Source: an uncultured Alphaproteobacteria bacterium (lineage in GTDB: Bacteria > Pseudomonadota > Alphaproteobacteria > CAAHEQ01 > UBA3637). Taken from it: a DNA stretch of 64,000 nucleotides. The stretch is from assembly GCA_934203105.1 (NCBI GenBank), contig CAKPYQ010000004.1, forward strand, positions 11,336 to 75,335. Reading direction: 5' to 3'. Under the pieces are notes generated by a model that worked only from the letters and a program-made list of their open reading frames with translations, made no database searches and was not told the origin of the DNA. The translations under genes were made by a program, and so were the position numbers. Below, piece by piece: positions 4,858-47,445 of this stretch (position 1 is the first letter of the stretch; each line of letters starts with the position of its first letter).

Positions 4858-4864
4858 AAAATTT

Positions 4865-6867: not shown

Positions 6868-6869
6868 TT

Positions 6870-7526
6870 TTACTCCTGTTCAATACTTTCTAATAAAACG
6901 TCCATACTTTCCAAGTCGTGATTGTCATAAGGCACCGCTTCTTTGGCCGGAGTTTCTTTGTCCGATATGGATTCGGTTTGTTCGGGCTTTTGCTTTATTT
7001 CAACGTTTTCGGTTGTTAACGTTTCATCGGACATATCGCGCACCCCGATCATAAAGCTTTCCGGCAAAACGCTTTCCAACACAGGAACCGTTTTTTGTAA
7101 ATAAGCAACGGAAAAGTTTTTATCTTTATACTCTTCGATTGTTTCGGCCGGCATAGCAAACGCCGCAAAAAAGTAAATGATGACAACTAATAACAATCCG
7201 CGTAAAGCACCGAAAATCAAGCCGAGGATTCGGTCCAATCCGCTTAAAACGCTTTTGCGCAATTTGTCGTTGATTTTGGCGTTGACGATTGTGCAAACAA
7301 CCAAGATGACCAAAGCGATTACAATCGCGGCCGTAATGTCGGCAACGGTTGCGTTGGTGATCATTTTACGAAATAAAGGTCGTACAATCAACAGCCCGTA
7401 AAAAGCTCCGAATGCTGCCAAAACCCAAGCAATCAATCCCAATAATTCACGCACCAGCCCGCGATACATCGCAAACAAAGCGGAAATTAAAACAATTGCA
7501 ATAATTCCTAAATCAATCATTCCCAT
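6870..7526 (-). CDS. cvpA: CvpA family membrane protein
   Basis: The N-terminal half has 4 TM helices typical of the CvpA/colicin V production family. The C-terminal tail is acidic. Confidence 0.65.
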   Translation of the reverse strand: MGMIDLGIIAIVLISALFAMYRGLVRELLGLIAWVLAAFGAFYGLLIVRPLFRKMITNATVADITAAIVIALVILVVCTIVNAKINDKLRKSVLSGLDRILGLIFGALRGLLLVVIIYFFAAFAMPAETIEEYKDKNFSVAYLQKTVPVLESVLPESFMIGVRDMSDETLTTENVEIKQKPEQTESISDKETPAKEAVPYDNHDLESMDVLLESIEQE

Positions 7527-7538
7527 TTTTATGTTTCC

Positions 7539-8924: not shown

Positions 8925-8927
8925 TTT

Positions 8928-9743
8928 TTATTCCTTTACAGACATTTGTATTGGGCCTTTGGCAGAGCCGCTGATGAATTGTTTGACGTACGGGTTTGTC
9001 GTCTTTTCGATTTCTTTGACCGTGCCGACCCAAATGATTTTGCCTTGATAAAGCATCGCGATGCGGTCCGCAATTTTGCGCGCGGAAGCCATATCATGAG
9101 TGATTGTCAAAGCCGTTGCTCCCAAGTTTTTAACACACGACACAATCAATTCATTGATGACGTCAGACATAATCGGATCCAATCCCGTTGTCGGTTCGTC
9201 AAAAAAGATAATTTCGGGGTTGGCGGCAATAGCTCTGGCCAATCCGACGCGCTTTTTCATCCCTCCCGACAGGTCGGCCGGATACATATCGCCGACATCG
9301 ACCGTTAAGCCGACTTGTCCCAATTTTTCAATGGCAATGGCTTTGGCTTGTTTTTTGTTCATTTTTTTGCCTTGGATTAAGCCAAAAGCGACGTTTTCCC
9401 AAACGGTCATACTGTCGAACAAAGCCGCTCCTTGAAACAGCATACCGATTTTCGAATTGACCTTTTCCCGTTCGCGAGCGGACATTTTTAAAATGTCTTG
9501 GCCGTCAATTTCAATGACGCCTTTGTCGGGGTAAAGCAAGCCCAAAATGCATTTTAATGTGACGGATTTCCCCGTTCCCGAACCGCCGATGATCACCAAA
9601 GATTCGCCTTTTTTGATTTCCAAGTCGACCCCTTTTAATACGGCTTTTTTCCCAAAGGATTTATAAACGTCCTTCATCTTTATTTTGGGAACTTTTAAAT
9701 CTGTGGGTAACTTTGCCGTCGATTTTTTAAACAATGAAAACAT
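8928..9743 (-). CDS. mlaF: ABC transporter ATP-binding protein, MlaF-like
   Basis: Walker A GGSGTGKS, signature LSGGMKKRV and Walker B IIFFDEPTTGLD are present. The gene is adjacent to an MlaE-type permease. Confidence 0.75.
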   Translation of the reverse strand: MFSLFKKSTAKLPTDLKVPKIKMKDVYKSFGKKAVLKGVDLEIKKGESLVIIGGSGTGKSVTLKCILGLLYPDKGVIEIDGQDILKMSAREREKVNSKIGMLFQGAALFDSMTVWENVAFGLIQGKKMNKKQAKAIAIEKLGQVGLTVDVGDMYPADLSGGMKKRVGLARAIAANPEIIFFDEPTTGLDPIMSDVINELIVSCVKNLGATALTITHDMASARKIADRIAMLYQGKIIWVGTVKEIEKTTNPYVKQFISGSAKGPIQMSVKE

Positions 9744-10635: not shown

Positions 10636-10650
10636 GAACTAATGTAGAAC
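10636..10650 (+). promoter_or_regulatory. LexA operator (alphaproteobacterial SOS box GAAC-N7-GAAC) within the lexA promoter
   Basis: GAACTAATGTAGAAC lies 25 bp upstream of the lexA start. A TTGACA -35-like hexamer sits at 10622-10627. Confidence 0.6.
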
Positions 10651-10674: not shown

Positions 10675-11352
10675 GTGAATTTAATGTTGACAGAAAAACA
10701 ACACAAATTGCTTTTGTTTATCGCAAAGGAAATTGAAAAGCGCGGTGTTTCGCCGTCTTATGACGAAATGCGTGAGGCGTTGGATTTAAAGTCTAAATCC
10801 GGCATTTTTCGCTTGCTCGGATCATTGGAAGAGCGCGGATTTATTCGGCGGTTGCCTCATCGTGCGCGGGCGTTGGAAGTGGTTAAATTACCCACTGCAA
10901 AGGTTGAAAGTTTGCCCGCTCCTGCGGCTTTGTCTTTTGATGCGCCGGCAAATCCGCCGTTGGAAGATGAAATTGAAATCCCTTTATATGGAAAGATTGC
11001 GGCCGGTACGCCGATCGAAGCTGTGCGTGATATGCAAGCGCGCATTCCTGTTCCGCCGTCGTTGATGGGGCGCGGTGAGCATTATGCTTTAAAAATCGAA
11101 GGCGATTCGATGATTGATGTTGGTATTATGAATGGCGACACGGTGATTATTCAACGGGCAGATACGGCCGAAAACGGTGAAATTGTGGTTGCGTTGGTGG
11201 ACGGATTAGAGGTGACGTTAAAGCGTTTCCGCCGTCAAGGATCGTCTGTGGCGTTAGAGCCTGAAAATCCGGCGTATCAGACGCGTATTTTACCGGCATC
11301 GCGTGTGCGTGTTCAAGGCAAGTTGGTTGCTTTAATGCGTCGATACAGCTGA
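10675..11352 (+). CDS. lexA: SOS repressor LexA
   Basis: N-terminal winged HTH ([26 protein letters not shown]) is present. S24 peptidase motifs GDSM (Ser nucleophile) and the C-terminal K are present. An Ala-Gly cleavage region is present. Confidence 0.9.
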
Positions 11353-11399
11353 TTTTTTTATTTTTCCGTTTTGACTTTTTTCATGGGGACGTTTGGGAT

Positions 11400-11760
11400 T
11401 CGTTTTTTCCGTCGGGTGATTTTGAAACTGCCTCTTTCCTAGCGGTCATTCTGACGGTGTTTTCCCCACCGGTCATTCTGAGCGTCAGCGAAGAATCTCT
11501 TAGTGCCTTGTGTCATTCAGAGCGTTGCTCGGAATGACGGGAGGGAGAAAACGCTCTGATGACTAAAAATAAAACAGCATTTTTTAAGTGGGGGACGCGC
11601 CGCGCGAAAATTTCGCGTCCCCCACTTTGCGCCCAAGGCCACATATTAAAAGATTCTTCACTATAGTTCAGAATGACTGCGTGAATACTAAGAGATTCTT
11701 CACATGCGCTCAGAATGACGCGAAAAAAAATGACCAAAATGACGGGGCGTAAAAAAGCGC
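11400..11760. repeat. repeat-rich intergenic region with a perfect 14-bp GC-rich hairpin
   Basis: Multiple copies of GTCATTCTGA / TCAGAATGAC-type units occur at ~11446, 11467, 11508, 11665 and 11705. An imperfect inverted repeat at 11474-11512 vs 11683-11725 flanks AAGTGGGGGACGCG...CGCGTCCCCCACTT (about 11587-11628). Confidence 0.4.
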
Positions 11761-11942
11761 ACAGAAAATGGCATTGAGGAAGAAAATCCTAAAATCACAT
11801 AAGGAAAATACAGCCCCGTTCTATAAATAAACGCAACTTCTTACCTATAAATAAAAGTGCATCAAACGAATTTCAGATTGAAATTGTTCTTGTCCTTACG
11901 GATTCTTCCCTACAAATAAAATATGTAGCGGACGAATAAAAT

Positions 11943-12578
11943 TTATTGGCTGACCCATAAAACTCGGCTGATCCACAAAATGTCTTCCATTCTAAAGTTG
12001 CAGTCCGGATATTGCGGGTTTAATGATTTTAAATCCAGTTGAAAAGCGGTTTTGCGAATTAACTCTTTGACCATTACTTCGCCGCTTTTGGTCTTGACAA
12101 CAACACGGTCGCCGTGGCGAACTTCCGATTCCGGACACACAATCAACCGATCCCCTTCGCGATAGACCGGCTCCATACTGTGCCCCGATACCTCCAAAGC
12201 ATAAACATCTTTGTCCAATTGTATCGGAAATTCAATGCCGTCCCAACCTTCGCTGTTGGTCGGAAAACCGGCGTCGTCAAAGAAACCGTCGCGCCCCGCT
12301 TGTGCAAAACCCAACAAGGGAATCGTCATTTTGGGCGGCAGGTTTGTTTCACCCGCCAAAGCCATAAATTCCAAAAAAGTGGTCGATGTTGCTTCCAGAA
12401 CTTTATTCAAACTTTCCATTGACAACCACCGTTTGCGCCCGTCCGCTCCGATTCGTTTGCTTTTGTTAAATGAAGTCGGATCCAAGCCGGCTTTTTGGGC
12501 CAACGCCGACGGCGATAATTCCAACTTTTCCGCCAATCGGTCAATCCCTTTCCAAATTTCAAAGTATGATAAATTCAT
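11943..12578 (-). CDS. phage-type repressor, cI/LexA-like (HTH + S24 peptidase)
   Basis: The N-terminal HTH is followed by the C-terminal S24 domain GHSMEP...K. The gene is transcribed divergently from the phage structural genes. Confidence 0.8.
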   Translation of the reverse strand: MNLSYFEIWKGIDRLAEKLELSPSALAQKAGLDPTSFNKSKRIGADGRKRWLSMESLNKVLEATSTTFLEFMALAGETNLPPKMTIPLLGFAQAGRDGFFDDAGFPTNSEGWDGIEFPIQLDKDVYALEVSGHSMEPVYREGDRLIVCPESEVRHGDRVVVKTKSGEVMVKELIRKTAFQLDLKSLNPQYPDCNFRMEDILWISRVLWVSQ

Positions 12579-12632
12579 TTTTTCGTCCTTTCCTTACAGG
12601 TATCTTTTTCCGCTGCTTTTTTTTAAGTATAC

Positions 12633-12664
12633 AATAGGAAAATATAAAAGTAAATAGGAAAATA
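12633..12664 (+). promoter_or_regulatory. candidate operator: two direct AATAGGAAAATA repeats 20 bp apart in the repressor/early divergent promoter region
   Basis: Exact 12-mers lie at 12633-12644 and 12653-12664 in the AT-rich region between the repressor and the first + strand gene. Confidence 0.3.
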
Positions 12665-12792
12665 AATATTTTTATCTTGACATAGTGGGAAAATAATCCT
12701 ATACAAAAGAACTAAACAAGAAAAGCTTTATTTTTAAATCAATTCTTGTTTTAAGTGTAATATAAAATCTTTATATATAGGGGAGTAAGAGA

Positions 12793-13164
12793 ATGTTTAA
12801 ATCGAATAATTTTATGAAAATAGATAACAGGCCGATTCGCTTTTTTGATAATGCGCAAGAAGTTTGGTTGTGGTTTTGCTTTTGTGAAATGACGCCAAAA
12901 TCGGGATCAAAAAGTGATTGCGAAACAACGCGTCCATGCGAAACTTCCGATGTCGCAATTATTGTAAAACGGTTGGTGCGTGACAAAATTTTAACGCAAG
13001 AGCATTTGAAAGTGTTGAGCTTATACGGCTTAAAACAAATGCCGCCATATGAAAAATGTGGAGATCCGATTCGACATTGCGCCTTATGGAAACAAGCTTT
13101 ACAGCGGATTTTAGAGCCTTTGAAAGTAAAAGGTATTGTTTGCATGAATGGAACGGCTTTTTAA
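12793..13164 (+). CDS. hypothetical phage protein
   Basis: RBS GGGGAG lies before the ATG. This is the first gene after the divergent promoter. There are no recognisable motifs. The alternative overlapping minus ORF 12771..13145 was judged less likely. Confidence 0.35.
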   Translation: MFKSNNFMKIDNRPIRFFDNAQEVWLWFCFCEMTPKSGSKSDCETTRPCETSDVAIIVKRLVRDKILTQEHLKVLSLYGLKQMPPYEKCGDPIRHCALWKQALQRILEPLKVKGIVCMNGTAF

Positions 13165-13181
13165 AATAAAGGAGATATAAA

Positions 13182-13589
13182 ATGATTGGAAGACGTTTAA
13201 ACGGATATCGTTATGAAAAGGCGATTGTCGGTTTCGGCGGTACGCCTACTTTGTGGTGGATGCGATTTTTGAAAAAAGGATTTTATCATTGTATCGTCGC
13301 CTTGGGACGGGGTGACGAGTGGTTGATAATTGATCCGCTGCTTTGCTACACCGATGCGATTATGGTGCATGGTGCAGACATTAAAGAATTTTTTAAAAAA
13401 CACGGATATCGATTCGTCGAAACAACTATTTCAGAACCTGAAAATAAACTTTTGCGTGTAATGCCTTACACTTGTGTTGAAACGGCAAAGCGCTTTATTG
13501 GTGTTGATAATCCTTATATTTTAACACCTTATAGCCTGTTTTGCTATTTAAATAAAAAAATAGGAAAAAAATCCTTGACAATGGATTGA
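13182..13589 (+). CDS. hypothetical phage protein
   Basis: RBS AAGGAG lies before the ATG. The ORF is followed by a rho-independent terminator. Confidence 0.4.
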   Translation: MIGRRLNGYRYEKAIVGFGGTPTLWWMRFLKKGFYHCIVALGRGDEWLIIDPLLCYTDAIMVHGADIKEFFKKHGYRFVETTISEPENKLLRVMPYTCVETAKRFIGVDNPYILTPYSLFCYLNKKIGKKSLTMD

Positions 13590-13634
13590 AAATATGGTAT
13601 AGTGTTCTACAGTTGGTTGGGAAAAGTGTATCTG

Positions 13635-13669
13635 AAAAGGCCTCGATTTTAAATCGGGGCCTTTTTTTA
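13635..13669 (+). terminator. rho-independent terminator
   Basis: The stem AAGGCCTCGATT / AATCGGGGCCTT is followed by a T7 run. Confidence 0.5.
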
Positions 13670-13728
13670 TTCCTATCGGCAAAGTCGTCCTTTTTATTAA
13701 ATGGGCGACTTTTTTAACAACAAAAAAG

Positions 13729-13932
13729 TTGGAGATGAAAATGAAAAAAGTCAAAGAAGTCATCGGCTTTGAAACCAAAGTCGAACAAATATCGCCGCAG
13801 TCCGCATCGACAGAACGGGACGACGGTTATTTAGCTCGCCAAGCAGGATTGCAAACCGTTCAAACATCTATGCGTGGCATTTTACGAAGCAATGATAATG
13901 CGCCGCAACGCAAAAAATTATTAGGAGAATAA
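13729..13932 (+). CDS. small hypothetical protein preceding portal
   Basis: It is a 67-aa ORF with a GGAG RBS, abutting the portal start. Confidence 0.3.
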   Translation: MEMKMKKVKEVIGFETKVEQISPQSASTERDDGYLARQAGLQTVQTSMRGILRSNDNAPQRKKLLGE

Positions 13933-13933
13933 A

Positions 13934-15409
13934 ATGCTGGATCAATCCAATTTATATCAACGATTTTTAAAAATGAAATCGCAACGCCAATCGTTGGAAA
14001 ATACTTGGCGCGAATGTTATGAGTTTGCTTTGCCTCAACGGGAAGGGCTGTTTAGCGGCGTATCCACTCAGGTTGATCGCTTGTTTGACGGCACGGCGCC
14101 CGACTGTGTTGATCAACTGGCCGCCTCGATTTTTTCGGAATTGACGCCACCGTGGTCAAAATGGTTCGACTTAAAAGCCGGTATCGACGTTCCCAAAGAC
14201 GATGAAGAAATTTCCAAAAGCTTGCAAGACATCGCGGATATTTTGAAAAATCATCTTAATCAATCAACGTTCAGCGTGGAAATGCATCAATGCTTTTTGG
14301 ATTTGGTGACGGTCGGCACAGCGTGCTTGTTGTTCGAAGAAGCCAAAGCCGGTGAAAAAACGGCGTTTCATTTTACGGCAATTCCTTTGTCCGAAATTTA
14401 CGTTGACGAAGGATATTCGGGACGTTTAGATACGACTTTTCGTTATTGTAAATTACCGCTTTCGGTGATTATGCAACGTTTTGAAAATGCGCGCAAATGT
14501 ATTGATGAAAGGGCTTTGAATGACAAAAATTGTGCAGATATTTTTATTCCTGTTATTGAATGTGTTGTGCCTCGCCAATCAGGCGGTTATGAATATATGG
14601 CATTTGTGGAAAAAGACCCGGACAACTTGTTCGGCATGCAAGAGCAATTTATTTTAAAGCAAGGGACTTTTGACTCATCGCCTTTTATTACTTTCAGATG
14701 GTTAAAAGCGGCGGGCGAAGTTTACGGCAGATCGCCGGTGATGAAAGCTTTACCGGACATTAAAACAACAAATAAAGTTGTTGAGTTGATTTTGAAAAAC
14801 GCGACTATTGCCGTGACGGGGATTTGGCAAGCCGAAGATGACGGCGTTTTAAATCCGGCAAACATTCGTTTAATTCCGGGATCGATTATTCCCAAAGCCG
14901 TCGGATCCAAAGGTTTAACCCCTTTGCAGCCGGCCGGCAATTTCGACGTATCACAATTGATTTTGGACGACCTGCGCGCGCGCATTCGTCATGCTTTGTT
15001 AACCGATAAATTAGGGCAAGTCCAAAATACAAAAATGAGCGCAACGGAAGTTATGGAGCGCAGTGCCGAAATGGTGCGCATTTTGGGAGCAACTTATGGC
15101 CGTTTACAATCCGAATTGTTGACGCCGTTGATCGAACGTGCTTTGAGCATTTTACGCCGACGCGGAGAAATCCCATCGCTGTATTTAGACGGGCATTTGG
15201 TGCAAATCACTTATCAATCCCCGATCGCCAATTTGCAAACAAGCCAAGAAGCCAATAACGCTTTGATGTTTTTGCAATCATTGTCCGGATTGAAAATAGA
15301 TGCTGTCGAAATGTTGGATGTTGCGGCTTTTACAAAATGGTTGGCGTCGCGGTTAAATGTGCCGCTTTCGTTTATCCGCACACAACAGCCAAAAGGAGAT
15401 GACAAATGA
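13934..15409 (+). CDS. phage portal protein (T7 gp8-like position)
   Basis: At 491 aa it is the first large gene of a module with T7-like order (portal-scaffold-capsid-tail tube A/B-terminase). The assignment is by position and size only. Confidence 0.6.
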   Translation: MLDQSNLYQRFLKMKSQRQSLENTWRECYEFALPQREGLFSGVSTQVDRLFDGTAPDCVDQLAASIFSELTPPWSKWFDLKAGIDVPKDDEEISKSLQDIADILKNHLNQSTFSVEMHQCFLDLVTVGTACLLFEEAKAGEKTAFHFTAIPLSEIYVDEGYSGRLDTTFRYCKLPLSVIMQRFENARKCIDERALNDKNCADIFIPVIECVVPRQSGGYEYMAFVEKDPDNLFGMQEQFILKQGTFDSSPFITFRWLKAAGEVYGRSPVMKALPDIKTTNKVVELILKNATIAVTGIWQAEDDGVLNPANIRLIPGSIIPKAVGSKGLTPLQPAGNFDVSQLILDDLRARIRHALLTDKLGQVQNTKMSATEVMERSAEMVRILGATYGRLQSELLTPLIERALSILRRRGEIPSLYLDGHLVQITYQSPIANLQTSQEANNALMFLQSLSGLKIDAVEMLDVAAFTKWLASRLNVPLSFIRTQQPKGDDK

Positions 15410-15657
15410 AATTAGGTTGGTCTTTTTTAGAAAATCAAACGCCTGTCCATGTCGCTGTTGACGACGTTGCAAAAAGCTTTGCACGGTGTTTTTCGTCAGC
15501 GGACGGCCATAAAGTTTTGCTTTATTTGGCGGGACAGACAAAAGAGCGTTTTTTGAATGCTACGGCAACGTCGAACGAGCTGTGGTTTCAAGAAGGCAAG
15601 CGCGCCTTATTCGCGCAAATTGAACATCTGATTAACAAAGGAAAAAAAGGAGAGTAA
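15406..15657 (+). CDS. small phage protein
   Basis: It is an 83-aa ORF translationally coupled to portal by an ATGA overlap. Confidence 0.35.
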   Translation: MKLGWSFLENQTPVHVAVDDVAKSFARCFSSADGHKVLLYLAGQTKERFLNATATSNELWFQEGKRALFAQIEHLINKGKKGE

Positions 15658-15661
15658 AATA

Positions 15662-16375
15662 ATGGAAAATTTAATGCAAATTCAAAACGGTAAGACAAAC
15701 ACAATTCCGGCAAAATTTTTGGATGCCAAAGGCAATTTGAACGTTGATTCTTTGTTGCAATCCTATACCGAGTTGGAAAGAAAATTGGGTAAAATGGTGC
15801 GCATTCCGTCCGATGATTCTTCACCGGAAGAGCGAAAAGATTTTTATCAAAAAATCGGCGTACCGGCCAGCGCAAAAGATTATCAATTAAATATCAAAAA
15901 TGAATTGTTGGCGTCCGATCCTGATGTCAATCAACGCTTATATGATTTAGGTTTTACGAATGCGCAAGTTCAAGCTGTCTACGATTTGGCGGCGGAAAAA
16001 GTTTTGCCGGTCATTCATCAGTTGGCACAAGATTATGAAGCCACAAGACAACGCGCGTTGTTAGAGGAGCACTTCGGTGGTAAAGGACGTTTTGAAGAAA
16101 TTGCACGTCAAATCACAACTTGGGCAAAGCAAAACGTATCGGCGCAAGTTTTTGATGCTTTGTCGACGACTTACGAAGGCGTTTTGACGTTGTATAAAAT
16201 GATGGAAAGCAGCGAACCTTTTATGATGCCAAAAGGGGTGGCTGTTAATGAAATGTTGGACGAAGAAGGTTTGAAAAAGTTAATGATGTCGCCCAAGTAT
16301 TGGCGCGATCAAGATCCGGCAACTTTGAAAAAAGTGGCGGACGGTTTTCACCGGCTTTATCCCAGCAAGCAATAA
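15662..16375 (+). CDS. capsid assembly/scaffolding protein candidate
   Basis: It is 237 aa, helical and charged, and lies between portal and major capsid. Confidence 0.45.
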   Translation: MENLMQIQNGKTNTIPAKFLDAKGNLNVDSLLQSYTELERKLGKMVRIPSDDSSPEERKDFYQKIGVPASAKDYQLNIKNELLASDPDVNQRLYDLGFTNAQVQAVYDLAAEKVLPVIHQLAQDYEATRQRALLEEHFGGKGRFEEIARQITTWAKQNVSAQVFDALSTTYEGVLTLYKMMESSEPFMMPKGVAVNEMLDEEGLKKLMMSPKYWRDQDPATLKKVADGFHRLYPSKQ

Positions 16376-16514
16376 AAGACAATCGCTTTAATTTTTCGGG
16401 GCGACCTTTTATTTGTTTTTATGAAAGGCAGCGTTTTTTTTAAAGCCTATAACCTTTTGTAAAAAGCGTACTTTTAAAAAAATAAATCAACTTTAATCAG
16501 AAAAGGAAAATATT

Positions 16515-17372
16515 ATGAGTGAAAATGATGTAGTCTCTACGGCAATTGATGCCGCGTTTGTCAAACACTTTCAAGCGGAAGTCGTGACAGCTTACCAACA
16601 AATGGGATCGAAATTGCGTTCGACCGTGCGTTCGAAAAATAACGTCGTTGGCGCCAGCACAACTTTCCAAGTCATCGGCAAAGGAAGTGCTACAACCAAA
16701 ACCCGCAACGGGGCAATCACGGCAATGAGCTTGGAGCACAAACCGATTGAATGCACTTTGACGGATTATTATGCCGGCGCTTGGGTGGACAAATTGGACG
16801 AATTAAAAATCGGCCACGATGAACGCCGCGCCGTTGCTCAAATGGGTGCTTATGCTTTGGGACGCAAGACCGACGATTTGATTATTGCCGCATTGAACGG
16901 ATCGGCAAATACAATCGGCACGCAAGCATCTCCGGCGACTATGACCAAAGCTACAATTTTGCAAGCCTTTACAAAATTGAATAACGCAGACGTTCCCGAC
17001 GATGGTGAACGTTATGCTTTGGTTGCGCCGGCGCAATGGAACCAGTTGTTGAATATTGAAGAATTTTCTTCGGCTAACTATGTCGGCGATAAAACACCGT
17101 TCATCGCAGGTTGCGAAAGCCGTAAATGGTTAGGCATTAATTGGATTATGCATACTGCTTTGCCGTCCGGCACAGGTACGCATACATGCTTTATTTACCA
17201 CAAAAACGCAATCGGTCACGCGGTCGGAATGGACATCAAAACCGATATTACATGGCACGGCGACCATGCTGCGCACTTTGTCAACAGTATGATGAGCCAA
17301 GGGGCTTGCTTGATTGATCAAACAGCGGCCGTAAAATTGGTTTGTTCTGATACTGTCAGCACCGGTTCTTAA
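16515..17372 (+). CDS. major capsid protein, T7 gp10-like
   Basis: The N-terminal region FVKHFQAEVVTAYQQMGSKLRSTVRSKNNVVGASTTFQVIGKGSA aligns by eye with T7 gp10A FLKVFGGEVLTAFARTSVTTSRHMVRSISSGKSAQFPVLGRTQA. Confidence 0.75.
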   Translation: MSENDVVSTAIDAAFVKHFQAEVVTAYQQMGSKLRSTVRSKNNVVGASTTFQVIGKGSATTKTRNGAITAMSLEHKPIECTLTDYYAGAWVDKLDELKIGHDERRAVAQMGAYALGRKTDDLIIAALNGSANTIGTQASPATMTKATILQAFTKLNNADVPDDGERYALVAPAQWNQLLNIEEFSSANYVGDKTPFIAGCESRKWLGINWIMHTALPSGTGTHTCFIYHKNAIGHAVGMDIKTDITWHGDHAAHFVNSMMSQGACLIDQTAAVKLVCSDTVSTGS

Positions 17373-17440
17373 AAAATAGGTAAAAAAAGAAGGGGGCTTT
17401 TTTTTAAAGTCCCCTTTTTGTTTTAATAAAGGAGAGAAAA

Positions 17441-18010
17441 ATGGCACAGTCTGCTATTTCTTTATGTTCAAAAGCTTTGATAAAATTAGGAGCGCGTCCG
17501 ATTGTTTCATTTAATGAAAACACAGCAGAAGCGGAAGTTGCTTCACAACTTTATACATCTGTGCGTGACGCGATGTTGTCGGCTTATCCTTGGCGCTTTG
17601 CCACATCGCAAAGCGAATTGGCGCGGTTGGCGGAAAATCCCAAAGCGGATTATGCCTATTCATACCAATTGCCCAATGATTTTTTGCGTGTGTTAAGCGC
17701 GGGGGTCAGCTCGTCCGGACGTGGTTTAAATTACCGCATTTGCGAAAAAACGCTGCAATGCAACGCGTCGAATGTGATGTTGACATACATTTTTGATCCC
17801 AAAGAGGAAAATTATCCGCCGTTTTTTGACGCGCTTTTGGTGGCGCAGTTGGCGGCGGAGTTTTGCTTGCCGTTAACCGAAAGCGCTTCCAGATGTGAGT
17901 TTTTAGTCAAGCAAGCGCAAAAATCTTTTGCCGACGCGAAATTGATTGATGCACAGCAAGACATTCCAAATGCTATTACGGATTTTCCGTTGATCGGGGT
18001 CAGATTATGA
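17441..18010 (+). CDS. tail tubular protein A candidate (T7 gp11-like position)
   Basis: It is 189 aa (T7 gp11 is 196 aa). It lies immediately after capsid and is translationally coupled to the next gene. Confidence 0.45.
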   Translation: MAQSAISLCSKALIKLGARPIVSFNENTAEAEVASQLYTSVRDAMLSAYPWRFATSQSELARLAENPKADYAYSYQLPNDFLRVLSAGVSSSGRGLNYRICEKTLQCNASNVMLTYIFDPKEENYPPFFDALLVAQLAAEFCLPLTESASRCEFLVKQAQKSFADAKLIDAQQDIPNAITDFPLIGVRL

Positions 18011-19914
18011 GCAAGTTAATTAACCATAAAACCAACTTTACGTCGGGTGCGGTTTCGTCGGATTTGTTGGGACGAACGGATTTGTCGGCGTATGATAACG
18101 GCGCGATGGAATTAAAAAATATGTTTATCAGCCCGATCGGCGGCATTGAACGGCGCGCCGGCTTGCGCTATGTGGACGCGATAACGGGTGCGGTACGCTT
18201 GATTTCATTTGCGTTTAATACCGAACAAACGTATTTGTGTGTTGTGGGGGATCATTTTATCCGCATTTACAAAAATGAAAGCTTACTTCAAACATTGACG
18301 ACACCATGGAGCGCGCAAGATGTGCCGCAACTGCGTTGGACGCAAAGCGCGGATACATTGTTATTGACGCACCCCGACTATGCGCCCAAAAGCATTACGC
18401 GCCAAAGCAATGAAAGCTTTACCATCAGCGATTGGGTATTTGATACGAACGAGACGGGACAAAAGTTTTGTCCTTATGAAAAATACGCTCCTGCCGCAAT
18501 GACAATGAGCGCGACCGGCGGAGGGTCGGCCGTTACTTTAACGGCGGGCAGCGACTTTTTTACCGCATCGCATATCGGTCGGCATTTTAAAGTAAACGGA
18601 GGTGAGTTTGTTGTTTCGGCAATCACTTCTGCGACCCAAGCAACGGCTACACAAGTATTGGCCGCCAAAGATGCAACGGCTGTGGTCGATTGGGCAGAGG
18701 AAGCTTTTTGTCCCGAACACGGCTATCCGGCGTGCGTGACGTTTTACCAAGGGCGTTTGGTAATCGGCGGTTCGCGTGATTTGCCAAATAAGCTGTGGTT
18801 TTCCAAAAGCTTTGCAATTATGAACTTTGATACGGGGACGGGGTTGGACGATGAAGCAATCGGATTTTCTTTGCTCTCCGATCAAGTCAATGCTATACGC
18901 GGATTGATGTCCGGCCGACATTTGCAGGTTTTTACATCGGGTTCGGAATGGATGGTTTCGGGCGATCCTTTAACTCCTCAAAGCATTCAGTTAAAGCGTC
19001 AAACGCGTATCGGTTCGCCCAGTTATCGTTATGTGCCGCCGGTTGATGTTTCCGGAGCGACTTTGTTTGCGTCCGAAAACGGTTGCGAGGTGCGCGAATT
19101 TTTGTTCGCGGATTTAGAGCAGGCTTATCAAGCCAAAAATGTTTCTCTGTTATCGGGACAGTTGATTAAAAATCCGATTGATATGGACTATGACGCCAAG
19201 CGTCGTTTGGTGTACGTTGTGATGAGTGACGGCAAAATGGCCACCTTGACCAACTATCGATCAGAGGACGTTTTGGCGTGGAGCAGTCACGAAACCGCGG
19301 GCGATTTTTTGTCGGTTTGCGTTTTGGAAGGCGATGTGTATTTTTTAATCAATCGTTCGGGGCAAATTTATTTGGAAACGTTTGATGATGAAGTTTCAAC
19401 GGATTGCGCGTTTTTGGGCGAAGATGAAACGGCTCATCAAACGTGGACGGGCTTGTCGCCTTTGGTCGGTAAAAAAGTGCAAGTGATTGCGGACGGTCGT
19501 TTTGAAATGGAAACAACGTTGCAATCCAGTGCGTTGACGTTGACAAAGTCAGCTTATCATTTGCAGATAGGCTTGCCGTTTACGCATTCGGTGATACCTT
19601 TACCGCCGACGGTGGGATCGTCCGCCGGTAGCTTGCCTTTAAAGGCTGTACGTTTGGTTGAAATTCGTTTTAAAGTCGTTGATACGTCATCGCTTTTTTT
19701 GGATATCGGCAACGGCTATAACGAATTTTTGGTGAAAAAATTAAATGAAAACTATATCTTGGACGCGAAAAATGAAAAGCAAACCTGCGACGTGGTTATT
19801 CACGCGTTGGGTTGGGTGCGCGACGGTGTAACGCCTTTGTGGAAAATGCAAAGCGATATGCCGCAAGCGTGCAAAATAGTTTCCGTGACTTGTGTGATGA
19901 AAGTGAGTGAATAA
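18007..19914 (+). CDS. tail tubular protein B candidate (T7 gp12-like position)
   Basis: It is 635 aa and follows the gp11-like gene. The assignment is by position only. Confidence 0.45.
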   Translation: MSKLINHKTNFTSGAVSSDLLGRTDLSAYDNGAMELKNMFISPIGGIERRAGLRYVDAITGAVRLISFAFNTEQTYLCVVGDHFIRIYKNESLLQTLTTPWSAQDVPQLRWTQSADTLLLTHPDYAPKSITRQSNESFTISDWVFDTNETGQKFCPYEKYAPAAMTMSATGGGSAVTLTAGSDFFTASHIGRHFKVNGGEFVVSAITSATQATATQVLAAKDATAVVDWAEEAFCPEHGYPACVTFYQGRLVIGGSRDLPNKLWFSKSFAIMNFDTGTGLDDEAIGFSLLSDQVNAIRGLMSGRHLQVFTSGSEWMVSGDPLTPQSIQLKRQTRIGSPSYRYVPPVDVSGATLFASENGCEVREFLFADLEQAYQAKNVSLLSGQLIKNPIDMDYDAKRRLVYVVMSDGKMATLTNYRSEDVLAWSSHETAGDFLSVCVLEGDVYFLINRSGQIYLETFDDEVSTDCAFLGEDETAHQTWTGLSPLVGKKVQVIADGRFEMETTLQSSALTLTKSAYHLQIGLPFTHSVIPLPPTVGSSAGSLPLKAVRLVEIRFKVVDTSSLFLDIGNGYNEFLVKKLNENYILDAKNEKQTCDVVIHALGWVRDGVTPLWKMQSDMPQACKIVSVTCVMKVSE

Positions 19915-20248
19915 AATGGCAGCAAAAGAATCTGCTTTGGGCAGTTTGGTTTATGACGCTTTAACGGGTACGCAAAAATCAGAGTTGAAAAATGAGCGGC
20001 AAAAAGCGCTGTTGGAACAACAAAATAACGTTCAAAATTATAAAAAAAGTTTAAGCTCTTACCGCGCCAAAATGGCCGCCGGCGGTGCTGGTGGTATTTC
20101 CGGCGGCGTGGAGGCGGGATTAGAGCAACAGTTGGACGACAAAAATGCGCTTGTTGCGCAAAGCTTTAATCAAAAAGCAAAGCAAAATAAAAATCAAGCA
20201 CGCAAAAAGACGTTGTTAAGTATGGGATTTAATATCGGTGCCGATTAG
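19907..20248 (+). CDS. hypothetical phage protein
   Basis: It is 113 aa, hydrophilic, with a Gly-rich middle section. Confidence 0.35.
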   Translation: MNKMAAKESALGSLVYDALTGTQKSELKNERQKALLEQQNNVQNYKKSLSSYRAKMAAGGAGGISGGVEAGLEQQLDDKNALVAQSFNQKAKQNKNQARKKTLLSMGFNIGAD

Positions 20249-20262
20249 AAAAGAGGGGAAAA

Positions 20263-20556
20263 ATGGCAAAGGAAAAAATACAAAAAGCAAAAGATTTTTT
20301 CTTGGCAACTATCCCCGAAAAATTAACGCAGGCATTAAAAGAATATGATACGTTTTCGGCTCAAAGTGCCCCAATGGATGCCAAATCTTTTGGGGCTTTT
20401 CATATGGCGTGCAAGAGTGCTTTGTCGCATATTGTGCTGTTGATGAAAATGTTGCAGTTGGTCGAAAATGGCGCGCAAGATCAATCCGATACCGATTGGT
20501 TGGCAAAAGCAAAATCAGCAATTTATGAAGCGGAAGATGAAGGGGACGATGAATAA
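20263..20556 (+). CDS. terminase small subunit candidate
   Basis: It is 97 aa with an acidic C-terminus, lies directly upstream of the large terminase and overlaps it. Confidence 0.3.
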   Translation: MAKEKIQKAKDFFLATIPEKLTQALKEYDTFSAQSAPMDAKSFGAFHMACKSALSHIVLLMKMLQLVENGAQDQSDTDWLAKAKSAIYEAEDEGDDE

Positions 20557-22012
20557 AGCAAACTTAATCGAATTTGTTTGGATTTGGGATCAATTGCAAC
20601 AGCTATCCGTTCCGAAACATCACCGCAAAATTTGTCGTTTTTTGGAAAAAAGCTTTTATGCCAAAACGGGGCAAGCGTTGTTGATGGCTTTTCGTAATTC
20701 GGGCAAATCGACGTTGGTCGGCTTGTTTTGTGCGTGGGTTTTATATGTGCGTCCGAATACGCGGATTTTAATTATGTCGGCGGATTATGAGTTGGCCAAA
20801 AAAATGGTTCGTAACGTCAAGCGAATTATCGAACGCCACCCGTTGACGGCTTTTTTAAAGCCAAAGCAAAAAGATCAATGGGCGTCGGATCGCTTTACGG
20901 TTTGCCGAGATTTGGAGTTGCGCGACCCGTCTGTTTTGGCGCGTGGCGTTGGTGCGAATATTACCGGTTGTCGTGCGGATTTGATTGTTTGCGACGATGT
21001 AGAAGTGCCAAAAAATTGTGATACGTCGGGCAAGCGGTTGGATTTGCGCGAACGTTTGTCGGAATTGGATTTTGTTTTGGTGCCAAAAGGTTTGGTTCTT
21101 TACATCGGTACGCCACACACAAAAGAGACAATTTATAATGTGGAAGAGGGCGGCTTTTTAAAGGGCTTTCCGGTTTTAAGGTTGCCGATTTTGGACGACA
21201 AAGGACAAAGCGCTTGGCCTGAACGATTTCCTTTGTGTAAAATCGAAGCGATAAAAAAACGTTCGGGACCGTTGAAGTTTTTAAGTCAAATGCTGTTAAA
21301 GCCCGTCAATTTAAAATCGGGTCGATTAAATGCGGCGGGGGTGGTTTTTTATGATCAAGAATTGCACTATCAGGAAACAAACCAAACGGCCGTGTTGATG
21401 ATCGGCGATAAGCAAATGGTTTCCGGATCTGCTTGGTGGGATCCGGCGTTTGGGGCTGGTACGAAAGGCGATAACAGCGTTTTGGCTTGTGTGTTTTTCG
21501 ATAAAGAGGGACGGGCTTTTTTGCACGATATTACTTACTTAAAAGTCGAACAAGCCGGCAAAGCGGCCGAAATCCAATGTGAAAAAGTGGCGGATTTGAT
21601 TGAAAAATATCATATCCCGCAAATCAGAATTGAAACAAACGGGATCGGTCGTTTTTTGCCCGAATTATTGAAAAATACGTTGCAACGACGGCGGATTGTT
21701 TGCGCTGTATTGCCTGTTCATTCGCACGTTCCAAAGGCGGTGCGAATTACGGAAAGTTTGGACGCGCGGTTGGCAAACGGGTCGTTGCTTTTCCACAATC
21801 GTGTCAAAGAAACGCCGCTGATGGAAGAATTAAATGCTTGGACACCGGAAAACAGCAAAACGCATGATGACGGCTTGGACGCTTTGGCGGGGTGTTTATT
21901 ATCCGAACCCGTGCGTTTTACGCGCTGTGCCAAGCAAACGGTAAAAGCGGGGGCAGATTGGCGCTATGGCGGGCAAATAACAAATTTAAGTTTAGATGAT
22001 GTCACAATTTAA
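20537..22012 (+). CDS. terminase large subunit
   Basis: Walker A FRNSGKST and Walker B-like LIVCDDVE are present. The C-terminal nuclease region is DPAFGAGTKGDNSVLACVFFD. The track ORF starts at 20468, but the ATG at 20537 or 20549 avoids overlap with the upstream gene. Confidence 0.8.
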   Translation: MKGTMNKANLIEFVWIWDQLQQLSVPKHHRKICRFLEKSFYAKTGQALLMAFRNSGKSTLVGLFCAWVLYVRPNTRILIMSADYELAKKMVRNVKRIIERHPLTAFLKPKQKDQWASDRFTVCRDLELRDPSVLARGVGANITGCRADLIVCDDVEVPKNCDTSGKRLDLRERLSELDFVLVPKGLVLYIGTPHTKETIYNVEEGGFLKGFPVLRLPILDDKGQSAWPERFPLCKIEAIKKRSGPLKFLSQMLLKPVNLKSGRLNAAGVVFYDQELHYQETNQTAVLMIGDKQMVSGSAWWDPAFGAGTKGDNSVLACVFFDKEGRAFLHDITYLKVEQAGKAAEIQCEKVADLIEKYHIPQIRIETNGIGRFLPELLKNTLQRRRIVCAVLPVHSHVPKAVRITESLDARLANGSLLFHNRVKETPLMEELNAWTPENSKTHDDGLDALAGCLLSEPVRFTRCAKQTVKAGADWRYGGQITNLSLDDVTI

Positions 22013-22451
22013 AAAAAAGGAGATTATGATGAAGCAGGACTTTTTCAGTGCGTCCGATATTTTGGCGCGCACTTTATACGGCGAAGCACGTTCGGAAGGT
22101 TTGATTGGAATAGAGGCCGTCGCAAACGTGATTTTAAATCGCGTTCGGTTGGCAAAAACGCATCATGTTTGGTGGGGCAATACGGTCGAGGAGGTTTGTT
22201 TAAAACCGTTTCAATTTTCGTGTTGGATCCCGTCGGATAAAAACTTTTATCATTTAATACGCGCCGATGAAAGGGATCCGACTTTTCGACTGTGTCAACG
22301 TGTTGCTGTGCGCGCTTTGACGGGATTTTTGCCGGATATAACTCACGGCGCAACACATTATCATTCAAAGCAGGTCAGTCCCGCTTGGGCGCGGAAATTA
22401 ACGCCTGTTTACGAATACGGTAATCATTTATTTTACAGGGAGATATCTTAA
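21996..22451 (+). CDS. cell wall hydrolase, SleB family (endolysin)
   Basis: The YGEARSEG...AVANVILNR...HYH pattern of the SleB/CwlJ hydrolase family is present. The protein is 151 aa and sits at the head of a lysis cassette. Confidence 0.7.
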   Translation: MMSQFKKKEIMMKQDFFSASDILARTLYGEARSEGLIGIEAVANVILNRVRLAKTHHVWWGNTVEEVCLKPFQFSCWIPSDKNFYHLIRADERDPTFRLCQRVAVRALTGFLPDITHGATHYHSKQVSPAWARKLTPVYEYGNHLFYREIS

Positions 22452-22453
22452 AA

Positions 22454-22741
22454 ATGGCTTCATTTGATTTGCAAATCGGTAAATTGATGGCGCAGTTTGA
22501 CAGCTTGCAAAGTCGTATAGACGACGTGCGCAAAGGTATGGATAACACGAACCGTCAGTTGGCCAAATGGCACGGGGAATTTGAAACATTCGCCGGTGAC
22601 ATTATGGAAAAAATGGAAAAGCGTTTCATTTTGCGTTCGGAAATAGCGCCGATCAAAGCCGCTTTGTCGGTGGTGTTGGTGGCAACCGTCAGCGCGATTT
22701 GTATCAGCTTATCCGAATTGTTTTTTAAACGTTTATTTTAA
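22454..22741 (+). CDS. membrane protein, holin/antiholin candidate
   Basis: It is 95 aa with a C-terminal TM segment (AALSVVLVATVSAICISL) and lies in the lysis cassette. Confidence 0.3.
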   Translation: MASFDLQIGKLMAQFDSLQSRIDDVRKGMDNTNRQLAKWHGEFETFAGDIMEKMEKRFILRSEIAPIKAALSVVLVATVSAICISLSELFFKRLF

Positions 22742-22761
22742 CATATAAAAGGAGTGAAAAA

Positions 22762-23180
22762 ATGGATTTTATTATGACGCATTTTGATGAAATTTTGGTT
22801 GCAATTACTTCGGTTGTGACGGCAGCCAGCGCTATATGTGCTTTGACGCCGACGCCCAAAGACGACAATTTTATGGCAAAAGTTCGCCAGTATTTGGACG
22901 TGTTGGCTTTGAATGTCGGGAATAGCAATAAAGCCAAAGAGGCGCCGGCGCAATGAAAAATTTATCGGAAATAATCAAAGTTTGCAGCGACTTTTTGTCT
23001 TGGCTGCAATTGGGTAAAAAGATAAAGGAAAATGATGTTTTACAAAAACAAAATAAAGCGTTGCGTCGGCAATTATATTGGGCTGCTTGTCCTTGTTTAT
23101 CTTGGGGCAATTTGCTTGGCTGGTTGCGCGGTGGGGCCGGACAGGGGAGCATGTCCGCCATTTCCGGCTCCAAACCCTGA
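22762..23180 (+). pseudogene. i-spanin (Rz-like) apparently split by an in-frame stop at 22954
   Basis: The 64-aa ORF has an N-terminal TM (ILVAITSVVTAASAICAL) and ends at TGA 22954-22956. A 75-aa coiled-coil ORF starts at the overlapping ATG 22953. Together they resemble one Rz. The o-spanin gene is embedded in an alternate frame. Confidence 0.35.
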
Positions 23181-23280
23181 AATAGCGCAAGAATTACAGC
23201 TTTGCCCGTTAGAGCAAATGCCTTTGTTTTATGATTGGTTAAATAAGCTGTATGTTTTGCAAAAACAGTTAGATAGGTAA
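23032..23280 (+). CDS. o-spanin (Rz1-like) outer-membrane lipoprotein
   Basis: The signal peptide carries the lipobox LAGC. The mature part is Pro-rich (GACPPFPAPNPE). The gene is embedded out of frame in the C-terminal half of the Rz-like ORF. Confidence 0.5.
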   Translation: MMFYKNKIKRCVGNYIGLLVLVYLGAICLAGCAVGPDRGACPPFPAPNPEIAQELQLCPLEQMPLFYDWLNKLYVLQKQLDR

Positions 23281-23285
23281 AAACG

Positions 23286-23322
23286 CAAGGCCTTTTGTAA
23301 CATCAAAAGGCCTTGTTTTGAT
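23286..23322. terminator. bidirectional rho-independent terminator between the lysis cassette and rpoD
   Basis: The stem CAAGGCCTTTTG / CAAAAGGCCTTG is flanked by T/A runs. Confidence 0.5.
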
Positions 23323-34851: not shown

Positions 34852-34928
34852 CGGGGCGTAGCTCAGCCTGGTAGAGTACTTGGTTTGGGACCAAGGTGTC
34901 GCATGTTCGAATCATGTCGCCCCGACCA
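34852..34928 (+). tRNA. tRNA-Pro (anticodon TGG), CCA encoded
   Basis: The 7-bp acceptor stem is CGGGGCG/CGCCCCG. The D-loop AGCCTGGTAGAG is present. The anticodon stem-loop is CTTGG-TTTGGGA-CCAAG and the T-loop is GTTCGAATC. Confidence 0.9.
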
Positions 34929-47431: not shown

Positions 47432-47445
47432 TATAAGGAGAGTAT

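Follow-up and report, generated by a model that had tools for sequence, protein, structure and literature searches.

A T7-like particle cassette conserved among alphaproteobacterial housekeeping genes: a candidate gene transfer agent lineage

Introduction

Only a handful of gene transfer agent (GTA) lineages are currently known, and most work has dealt with the siphovirus-like RcGTA (Rhodogtaviriformidae). RcGTA is controlled by CtrA, quorum sensing and GafA; its DNA is delivered to the periplasm, and competence proteins of the recipient are then required. Here, we describe an 11.4-kb cassette of phage-type genes at positions 11943-23316 of a 64,000-nucleotide stretch (hereafter the window) of contig CAKPYQ010000004.1, from the assembly GCA_934203105.1 of an uncultured Alphaproteobacteria bacterium. 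One leftward gene and a rightward block make up the cassette, which encodes an S24 repressor, two small early proteins, T7-type head, short-tail and packaging proteins, and lysis proteins. On balance, the comparative evidence favours reading it as a domesticated, non-autonomous and vertically inherited particle cassette, derived from a podovirus of the T7 supergroup and GTA-like in character.

Like RcGTA, the cassette is a chromosomally fixed, phage-derived set of head, tail, packaging and lysis genes that is carried vertically across a large alphaproteobacterial clade under purifying selection. Both lack replication and integration genes as well as a full DNA-ejection apparatus, and a GTA_holin_3TM protein occurs in sister versions of the cassette. 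The parts themselves are different. RcGTA is siphovirus-like and combines an HK97 capsid and a prohead protease with a P22-like headful large terminase (TerL), whereas the cassette has a PF19821 capsid, a T7-type scaffold, a gp11/gp12-type tail, a T7-type TerL and no prohead protease. Control also differs, with the cassette using an S24 repressor and a promoter-proximal terminator. Judged by these components, the cassette is not a homologue of RcGTA.

Two further systems invite comparison. BaGTA of Bartonella (Bartogtaviriformidae) is likewise alphaproteobacterial, host-associated and co-divergent with its host. It needs 29 genes spread over ~79 kb plus a phage-derived run-off replication origin, neither of which is seen in the cassette, and its TerL groups with Sulfitobacter phages whereas that of the cassette matches T7-like phages, a separation that draws on the published description of BaGTA. 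This indirect evidence suggests that the cassette is not a BaGTA homologue. FpGTA of Faecalibacterium is encoded by a ~10.5-kb operon of small terminase (TerS), TerL, portal, scaffold, capsid and podovirus-type proteins that is near-ubiquitous in the genus, with fibre and lysis genes at a second locus; its particles, their proteome and ~9 kb of packaged host DNA have been reported, and it has been presented as the first GTA of podovirus type as well as the first from gut commensals (Borodovich et al. 2026, PMC12946183). Compared by description, FpGTA and the cassette share a gut bacterial host, a similar operon size and content, and fibres placed outside the main operon. They differ in that FpGTA belongs to Firmicutes, has its lysis genes at the second locus rather than inside the operon, and is known from particles shown experimentally, while the cassette is known from genes alone. 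The cassette family is not covered by the FpGTA paper.

Literature on T7-like or tail-tubular GTAs in Alphaproteobacteria yielded no description of such a chromosomal particle cassette, and the small-capsid candidates of Luque et al. were not linked to it. Its novelty would lie in an independent domestication from another phage lineage and in a control circuit other than those of known GTAs.

Kinship with T7-supergroup phages

The initial annotation of this DNA had described T7-like genes for structure, packaging and lysis that are controlled by a divergently transcribed S24 repressor, and profile searches confirmed all of its gene calls (Table 1). The T7 late gene order that it had recognised (portal, small open reading frame (ORF), scaffold, capsid, tubular A and B, then the terminases) also stands, with positional equivalents matching gp8-gp12 and gp19. 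The portal matches T7 gp8 (BLASTP E 2e-19) and TerL matches gp19 (E 2.5e-25; profile 8e-42), and the family profiles of scaffold, tubular A and tubular B have gp9, gp11 and gp12, their positional equivalents, as best T7 matches (E 1.4e-4 for tubular B against gp12). A resemblance of the capsid N-terminal region to gp10, first seen by eye, corresponds to 37.5% identity over 48 residues (capsid residues 13-59, gp10A residues 26-71). TerL matches 2804 phage records, the majority of them T7-like phages. By these profile and BLASTP comparisons, capsid, portal and terminase belong to the T7 supergroup and not to the HK97 or P22 lineage, the competing ancestry that the initial annotation had raised.

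The likeness to T7 concerns the structural module only, as colinear homologues of gp8, gp9, gp10, gp11, gp12 and gp19, and extends to a terminator directly after the capsid gene, the position of T7 Tphi. Identity is nevertheless very low, at 22-30% where detectable, and the cassette has no phage RNA polymerase, DNA polymerase, gp13, gp15, gp16 or gp17; it has host-type sigma-70 promoters and a lysogeny-type repressor instead. The cassette and its flanks hold no integrase, no replication gene and no phage RNA or DNA polymerase, and no ORF of gp15, gp16 or gp17 size lies between the nozzle gene and terS. The initial annotation was therefore right that polymerase, integrase, fibre and gp15/gp16-size genes are missing; its stricter statement that nothing equivalent to gp13-17 is present does not hold, as the 110-aa product of o110 is faintly gp14-like. 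This gene is the only one kept after the nozzle gene, and its position matches that of a 159-aa gene after the nozzle in phage Hodr.

By capsid, the nearest true phages are Pelagibacter phage EXVC031P Hodr (40% identity), followed by Vibrio phages and HTVC010P (30%). Hodr (34 kb) and 32-kb temperate Vibrio podophages (e.g. MG592623) have the gene order of the type B relatives described below: TerL, small ORF, portal, small ORF, scaffold, capsid, small ORF, adaptor and nozzle. In these phages the nozzle gene is followed by genes for a small, a ~700-780-aa and a ~1050-1250-aa protein in the positions of gp14, gp15 and gp16 (159, 783 and 1247 aa in Hodr), and then by fibre genes. Their genomes of 32-35 kb hold many further genes, including an integrase in the Vibrio phage, and the cassette keeps about one third of this gene set.

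With a lysogeny-type repressor and structural, packaging and lysis genes in one block, the cassette could be taken for a complete but very small temperate podovirus. This we regard as hardly credible. The cassette has no means of replication, integration or excision and no receptor-binding protein, its ejection proteins are limited to the gp14-like ORF, and it is inherited vertically, while the related true phages are 32-35 kb long.

Missing phage genes are not found next door either. The left flank comprises radA, mlaF, mlaE and the host lexA (10684-11352) and the right flank rpoD, dnaG and yqeY. Within 10 kb there is no integrase, excisionase, Rep, primase, polymerase or tRNA gene at either edge, a result that for mobility and replication genes covers the window and 80 other species, and no helicase or origin module adjoins the cassette. 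The initial annotation had allowed for tail-fibre and core genes just outside the module. Because the flanks are host housekeeping genes and no fibre or ejection homologue is present in the 64 kb, it is excluded that the rest of a prophage lies just outside. The span first given, 11943-23280, was correct on the left, and the real right end is a bidirectional terminator slightly further on (23285-23316).

Distribution and architectures

Within the species, at least 20 metagenomic contigs encode an identical capsid. Ten same-species contigs have identical gene order, and those that reach a flank all show lexA or rpoD. Beyond the species, a large protein collection contains 4001 capsid homologues, many of them from contigs 100-800 kb long, and capsid relatives are present in at least 571 species-representative GTDB genomes. 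Carriers from the guts of humans, ruminants, chickens and termites are metagenome-assembled genomes (MAGs) labelled Alphaproteobacteria, Ca. Enterousia or Ca. Scatocola; cultured carriers include Azospirillum, Skermanella, Varunaivibrio, Rhodocista, Caenispirillum and others.

Cassette genes were mapped on 80 loci, each from a different assembly, and on a second set of 86 loci (80 contigs of IMG/VR, four loci from metagenomes and two records from phage collections), about 170 in all; most of the genomes are MAGs. All 80 loci lie among host housekeeping genes, such as those for Lnt, the beta, gamma and epsilon subunits of ATP synthase, GluRS, CysRS, GspE/F, LspA and a tRNA methyltransferase. 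Integrase, excisionase, primase and Rep genes occur in none of the ~170 mapped loci, and there is one copy per genome among the loci examined.

Four architectures can be distinguished. Type A, that of the cassette, runs from the leftward repressor through o123, o135, o67 (in some loci), portal, Bbp19, scaffold, capsid, tubular A, tubular B, o110, terS, terL and lysin to o95 and o64. In type B, the leftward repressor, o123 and o135 are followed by terS, terL, a small ORF, the lysin, a GTA_holin_3TM protein and another small ORF, and then by the block from portal to tubular B, a gp14-like ORF and a 64-aa ORF. Type C, which is Enterousia-like, is rearranged and interleaved with host genes. Type D, found in the cultured Azospirillum, Skermanella, Varunaivibrio, Rhodocista, Caenispirillum and others, is 15-18 kb long and keeps fibre or tailspike genes. 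The GTA-type holin domain (PF11351, GTA_holin_3TM) is thus a feature of sister architectures, and in some lineages host genes are embedded in the cluster, namely a GGDEF-EAL gene, BirA and a DnaB-type gene.

Chromosomal position is fixed across many species in types B and C and varies among type A sub-clades, where the cassette often lies beside lnt in either orientation. The initial annotation had proposed conservation at the lexA locus as a sign of domestication. The module is indeed conserved across the clade; its position is fixed only within sub-clades, and the site between lexA and rpoD is specific to this species.

Single lineages show rearrangements of their own. In the type C locus L056 the large terminase is split into an N-terminal ATPase ORF of 197 aa with Walker A and B motifs (13776-14369) and a C-terminal ORF of 282 aa (17703-18551), separated by three opposite-strand genes for a 217-aa ORF, a 336-aa protein (by eye a regulator with two XRE-type helix-turn-helix domains) and a DnaB-type helicase. 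A split terminase with intact ORFs recurs in most of ~40 type C loci (L049-L090). The type C repressor has shrunk to a 91-aa DNA-binding domain, and a BirA-like gene lies inside the cluster. In the Azospirillum argentinense-type locus L177, HAMP-PAS-GGDEF-EAL and PRC-barrel genes stand between scaffold and capsid (4841-9576), a gap of like size being present in other Azospirillum-type loci, and the portal is cut to 219 aa beside an inserted block with an integrase-like gene.

Relatives also occur in virome collections. A 5084-bp human faecal virome contig deposited as 'Bacteriophage sp.' (MT838907.1) carries the portal-to-nozzle genes of this family (capsid identity 60%), and at least 578 IMG/VR contigs hold relatives, the examined ones being 3-19 kb long and one 34 kb. 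Because MT838907.1 and these contigs carry it, viral databases already hold this chromosomal element under a phage label.

Vertical inheritance and purifying selection

The core genes are of normal length in nearly all loci: portal and scaffold in 71/71, capsid in 79/79, and tubular A and tubular B each in 77/78. Pairwise divergence of the concatenated cassette proteins follows that of host genes linked to the element, with r = 0.97 among 11 type B species and r = 0.98 among 13 type C species (slopes 0.72-1.0; Mantel p < 0.0005, with 0 of 2000 permutations reaching the observed r). For type A, r is 0.88 against Lnt and 0.92 against ATP synthase. The cassette has been retained while neighbouring host proteins diverged by up to 45%.

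Substitution patterns agree with this. Within the species, the synonymous rate (dS) is 0.049-0.065 for the cassette and 0.055-0.062 for host genes on two well-sampled contigs (0.094 for lexA alone on the short contig L010). The ratio of nonsynonymous to synonymous rates (dN/dS), a comparison that the initial annotation had suggested, is 0.06-0.09 for the cassette against 0.02-0.05 for host genes within the species, which fits maintenance, and 0.07-0.12 for the cassette between species. GC content at third codon positions is 0.460 in the cassette, 0.468 in host genes and 0.355 in a nearby island. Taken together, these values indicate that the cassette is inherited vertically with its host and is under purifying selection.

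The initial annotation had left three options open: a decaying prophage, a tailocin-like particle and a domesticated GTA-like one. Evidence selects and supports the last. A tailocin is contradicted by the constrained capsid, portal and terminase that the cassette keeps. Neutral decay of a defective prophage with no present function would account for the missing integrase, replication, fibre and large internal-core genes, and in one Azospirillum strain the portal is indeed truncated by an insertion. Yet core genes are intact across 80 species loci, with dN/dS of 0.06-0.09 within and 0.07-0.12 between species; the cassette has outlasted up to 45% divergence of neighbouring host proteins, and a regulatory terminator has been kept through complete sequence turnover. 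Intactness, co-divergence, dN/dS and composition thus lead us to reject the remnant as highly improbable.

A phage satellite or mobile island would be a different kind of element, comparable to capsid-forming phage-inducible chromosomal islands (cf-PICIs): it would build its own heads and short tails, and a helper would supply fibres, replication and excision. Small size (11 kb), an own capsid, portal and terminase, the lack of fibres and repressor control all suit such an element, as do the many IMG/VR copies listed as viral contigs of 10-18 kb. Unlike a cf-PICI-type satellite, the cassette has no integrase or Rep and sits among housekeeping genes, and the same absence, extended to excisionase and primase, holds for the ~170 mapped loci. 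The cassette has no tRNA gene beside it (no search was made for att-type repeats at its flanks), genomes carry one copy among the loci examined, and the clusters of some lineages contain host genes. Moreover, co-divergence (r 0.97-0.98) and dS are host-like, and the 10 same-species contigs show no presence/absence polymorphism, empty site, circular or excised form. A satellite is accordingly very unlikely; vertical inheritance together with the lack of any mobility gene argues for rejecting both it and the small temperate phage.

Loss of ejection and fibre genes

Large proteins of gp15/gp16 type were found in no chromosomal family member examined, whereas fibre genes persist to different degrees. 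Fibre-like proteins of 454 and 772 aa are kept in the Varunaivibrio locus, a 676-aa pectate-lyase-type tailspike in the Azospirillum locus, and a 620-aa fibre plus chaperone in one gut lineage (L093). Type C retains a 182-aa stub that corresponds to the conserved fibre N-terminal domain, and in type B a 64-aa chaperone remnant is all that is left of the fibre region. The type A cassette keeps no fibre parts; the small ORF that once stood between capsid and tubular A is gone as well. Fibres of the relatives and the internal proteins of Hodr have no tblastn match anywhere in the 64-kb window; the other large ORFs searched, in its 35-62 kb part, encode restriction-modification, radical-SAM, kinase/NUDIX/GNAT and similar proteins.

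Because this graded loss ends with nothing in type A, the cassette appears to be the most stripped-down version of an element domesticated long ago. If the family is indeed a GTA lineage, it offers a natural reduction series from 18 kb to 11 kb that shows which parts of a podovirus become dispensable once no infection has to be founded. The order would be ejection proteins first and fibres next.

Control region

The repressor has the peptidase domain of the S24 class, with a candidate cleavage site at Ala94-Gly95 and a candidate dyad of Ser134 and Lys171. Its peptidase domain can be aligned with that of the host LexA, whose gene lies 600 bp away, across the GxSM motif (GHS134M) and the lysine (K171). 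Together with a divergent promoter bearing repeated operator-like boxes, these features fit the self-cleaving LexA/cI type, and cleavage is predicted.

The direct repeats that had been proposed as operator candidates are present. Between repressor and o123, AATAGGAAAATA occurs twice (12633-12644 and 12653-12664), and a related third box, GGGAAAATAATCC (12687-12699), sits between the -35 (TTGACA, 12677-12682) and -10 (TATACA, 12700-12705) elements of a rightward early promoter found by promoter scan. A leftward promoter-like site (12654-12626) overlaps both AATAGGAAAATA boxes. In other species, the box at the early promoter recurs at the late promoter.

The late control element starts inside the 3' end of o135. 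A box, TAGGAAAAAAATCC (13561-13574), abuts a near-consensus promoter (TTGACA-17-TATAGT with TG, 13575-13603), which is followed after ~20 nt by a leader motif, AGTGTATCT (13625-13633), and then by an intrinsic terminator with a 15-bp stem (13634-13666) and a T-run (free energy, dG, -19 kcal/mol). The late genes come after this terminator. A hairpin plus T-run with dG <= -10 kcal/mol within 200 nt 3' of o135 is present in 35/35 type A and B loci, compared with 3.1% of shuffles; hairpin sequences are entirely different among these loci and the unit is nonetheless kept. The box-TTGAC late promoter is visible in 25/27 inspected loci, and the leader motif, (A)GTGTATCYAAA, in most. Searches of the control regions against Rfam returned nothing above chance.

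Lambdoid late operons have a promoter and, within tens of nucleotides, a strong terminator ahead of the late genes (lambda Q / PR'-tR'). Because a promoter that fires into a strong terminator before a long late operon is this Q-dependent design, the architecture of the cassette suggests a switch from early to late expression by antitermination. As in lambda, small regulator genes lie just upstream; in contrast to lambda, the cassette proteins examined have no similarity to Q by sequence or fold, and antitermination is read from architecture alone. GafYZ of Caulobacter reportedly controls a GTA cluster by activation plus antitermination. The conserved promoter-leader-terminator unit would represent a compact new late-gene switch.

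Which early product would act there can be narrowed down to candidates. The protein o123 has invariant residues W25, W27, P85 and W99 in its alignment and no match in Pfam, PHROG, PDB or phage searches, and a single-sequence AlphaFold2 (AF2) model was unusable (predicted local distance difference test score, pLDDT, 46); it is a candidate late-gene regulator or antiterminator. The o135 family (125-160 aa) is shared with temperate Vibrio podophages (MG592623.1:1949-2422), where the homologue lies between TerL and portal. Its AF2 model (pLDDT 84.8) combines a beta-sheet with helices and resembles five uncharacterised phage proteins (template modelling score 0.63-0.75); against PDB nothing was significant (best E 0.27), with weak papain-like hints only. 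The protein may be a packaging or head accessory.

Two candidate regulators were set aside. For o135 as a Q-like antiterminator, the PDB profile search was empty, there was no significant fold match and the phage homologues lie between TerL and portal, which leaves o123 as the better candidate by elimination. As for control by host LexA, the GTTC-N7-GTTC motif occurs once in the window, at 10636-10650 before lexA, and not in the cassette; lexA is the host's own gene with this box as its own.

Particle production and delivery

A plausible course of events can be outlined. Judging by where the TAGGAAAA-type boxes lie, the repressor would bind both its own divergent promoter and the late promoter. 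On DNA damage, activated RecA (RecA*) would trigger its self-cleavage at Ala94-Gly95, consistent with its motifs, and o123 and o135 would then be expressed. Transcription from the late promoter would read through the strong terminator ~30 nt downstream with the help of an early product, o123 being the better candidate. The cassette is, in this outline, probably SOS-inducible. The late operon would yield portal, scaffold, capsid, adaptor, nozzle and the gp14-like protein, which would assemble into heads with a short gp11/gp12 tail. The T7-type terminase would fill these heads with whatever DNA the cell offers, and for an element incapable of excision or replication this would be chromosomal DNA. 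Finally, the SleB-type lysin and small membrane proteins would release the particles. The most likely product is therefore a DNA-filled, short-tailed particle released by lysis.

Delivery is the weakest link. Adsorption may proceed via the nozzle or unlinked receptor-binding genes. Since this lineage has no gp15/gp16-type protein and no fibre, delivery would need receptor-binding parts from outside and probably recipient uptake functions, through which the DNA would enter as in RcGTA.

A domesticated particle could also serve another purpose than gene transfer. It might kill in the manner of PBSX, release DNA through altruistic lysis triggered by the SOS response, or act as a fixed 'lateral transduction' engine that packages processively from a pac site at the locus into neighbouring host DNA. 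Evidence for domestication applies equally to such roles, and loss of fibres and of gp15/16-type ejection proteins speaks against efficient injection. PBSX-like behaviour, with DNA packaged and not delivered, is possible; the FpGTA authors raise the same caveat for their own system (PMC12946183). Lateral transduction would suit an element that is chromosomally fixed with its own terS-terL, as directional packaging in situ needs, but no pac site was identified. Against non-transfer roles in general, the strong constraint on portal, terminase and nozzle is hard to explain if a DNA-filled particle had no role, and free-living relatives keep fibres or tailspikes, which implies that their particles target cells. 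We consider such roles unlikely.

The GTA-like reading draws on gene content, the absence of mobility and replication genes, conservation across the clade, co-divergence, purifying selection and promoter-terminator design. In those respects that can be judged independently of function (genome residence, non-autonomy, vertical descent and purifying selection), the cassette follows the GTA pattern.

Several points weigh against this reading. It is built on comparative genomics, so that particles, packaged DNA and transfer are predictions, and the co-divergence analysis takes linked genes and not a genome-wide species tree as its reference. Neither the cassette nor the rest of the 64-kb window encodes a receptor-binding protein by which particles could adsorb. 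As a rule, T7-type terminases cleave at defined concatemer junctions, and a loss of this specificity is assumed. The head may not be too small for the element, as homologous capsids of similar length hold 32-35 kb, about three times the cassette; since the main BaGTA cluster could physically fit its own head, this criterion is not universal. Enrichment of the TAGGAAAA box in the window alone is not significant (9 matches against 5.8 expected), and support for the box comes from its conservation across species. The antiterminator, lastly, is at the stage of candidates, as o135 has no Q-like fold and o123 has no homologues outside its family.

A broader proposal goes beyond the cassette, and we offer it tentatively: an ancient, independently domesticated GTA of the T7 supergroup may be common to Azospirillum/Rhodospirillum-type bacteria and hundreds of uncultured gut and rumen Alphaproteobacteria. 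Control would lie with an SOS-cleavable repressor and antitermination, and chromosomal DNA would be delivered without an ejectosome, the gut forms being stripped to 11 kb with their fibres lost or moved. If true, this would add a further GTA lineage beside the established families. A second, unrelated and very widespread alphaproteobacterial lineage would show that phage particles have been domesticated recurrently, and would suggest a path for gene exchange among the poorly known Alphaproteobacteria of gut and rumen.

Close relatives in cultured Azospirillum and Varunaivibrio, among them V. sulfuroxidans CP119676, make the hypothesis testable in culture. When induced with mitomycin, Azospirillum lipoferum 4B and strain B510 release particles that contain random host DNA of ~10 kb, and the cluster responsible has tentatively been assigned to RcGTA-like genes. 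If the proposal holds, the cassette might be the source of these particles. As a lead only, Azospirillum carries the cassette, and an S24 repressor would fit induction by mitomycin. Against this, the particles of the original report were reportedly siphovirus-like and attributed to RcGTA-like genes.

Gene inventory

Features of the cassette are listed in Table 1. Orthologues of o67 are present in part of the type A and type D loci. In almost every type A and type B locus the putative small terminase gene, o97, directly precedes terL, though the pair is located differently in each type. The products of o95, o64 and o75 are candidate holins or lysis accessories.

Table 1. Features of the cassette, with positions in the window.
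Feature	Position	Strand	Evidence or remark
S24 (cI/LexA-type) repressor, 211 aa	11943-12578	-	PF00717 E 2e-21; phrog_4 transcriptional repressor
Divergent control region	12579-12792	.	Between repressor and o123
o123, early gene, 123 aa, Trp/Cys-rich	12793-13164	+	Orthologues beside repressor in architectures A, B and D
o135, early gene, 135 aa	13182-13589	+	Phage-derived; alignments show invariant His36 and Cys98
Late control element (box, promoter, leader motif, terminator)	13561-13669	+	Starts inside 3' end of o135
o67, small ORF, 63-67 aa	13741-13932	+	Just 5' of portal; called in same-species contigs
Portal (T7 gp8 type), 491 aa	13934-15409	+	PF12236 E 9e-127
Bbp19-like small head-module protein, 83 aa	15406-15657	+	PF25181 E 2.7e-11
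Scaffold / capsid-assembly protein (T7 gp9 type), 237 aa	15662-16375	+	PF05396 E 4.8e-12
Major capsid protein, 285 aa	16515-17372	+	PF19821 E 5e-71; phrog_3437
Intrinsic terminator, 14-bp stem and T-run	17387-17419	+	Directly 3' of capsid gene
Tail tubular A / adaptor (gp11 type), 189 aa	17441-18010	+	phrog_394 E 2e-47
Tail tubular B / nozzle (gp12 type), 635 aa	18007-19914	+	phrog_376 E 2e-136; PF25675 weak
o110, possible gp14-like internal virion protein, 110 aa	19916-20248	+	Faint PF24072 T7_gp14 in the L091 orthologue
o97, putative small terminase, 97 aa, acidic C-terminus	20263-20556	+	phrog_31793; terS call by position
Large terminase (T7 gp19 type), 487 aa	20549-22012	+	phrog_38 E 1e-90; PF17289; PF22530
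SleB-type cell-wall hydrolase (endolysin)	22029-22451 (or from 21996)	+	Hydrolase_2 PF07486 E 1.8e-19; phrog_938 endolysin
o95	22454-22741	+	C-terminal transmembrane segment (hydropathy); orthologues in type A loci
o64	22762-22956	+	N-terminal transmembrane segment (hydropathy); phrog_9685; orthologues in type A loci
o75	22953-23180	+	No clear transmembrane segment (hydropathy); orthologues in type A loci
Bidirectional intrinsic terminator, right boundary, faces rpoD	23285-23316	.	Closes the rightward block

Other features of the window

The spacer between lexA and the repressor (11353-11942) is densely filled with short repeats of GTCATTCTGAGCG in both inverted and direct orientation, six copies in all. 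It also contains inverted arms of 33 nt (11472-11504 and 11687-11719) and a perfect 14-nt hairpin (11586-11627). Among same-species strains its length varies from ~590 nt to 1.14 kb, and it resembles repetitive extragenic palindromic (REP) sequences or miniature inverted-repeat transposable elements (MITEs).

The sole tRNA gene in the window, tRNA-Pro (34852-34928), marks the edge of a separate island of low GC content (27-40%) that extends to ~57400. This island encodes a type III-like methylase (35420-37246), a Res endonuclease (37993-41145) and an SNF2 helicase (41149-43251), followed by three radical-SAM/SPASM genes and a truncated class-I aminoacyl-tRNA-synthetase paralogue (44472-49472) and by small P-loop kinase, NUDIX and GNAT genes (50512-56338). 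The island appears to serve defence and biosynthesis and to be unrelated to the cassette. Further downstream, an ORF of 744 aa (59535-61769) contains a PcfJ-like domain; proteins of this family usually belong to conjugative elements.

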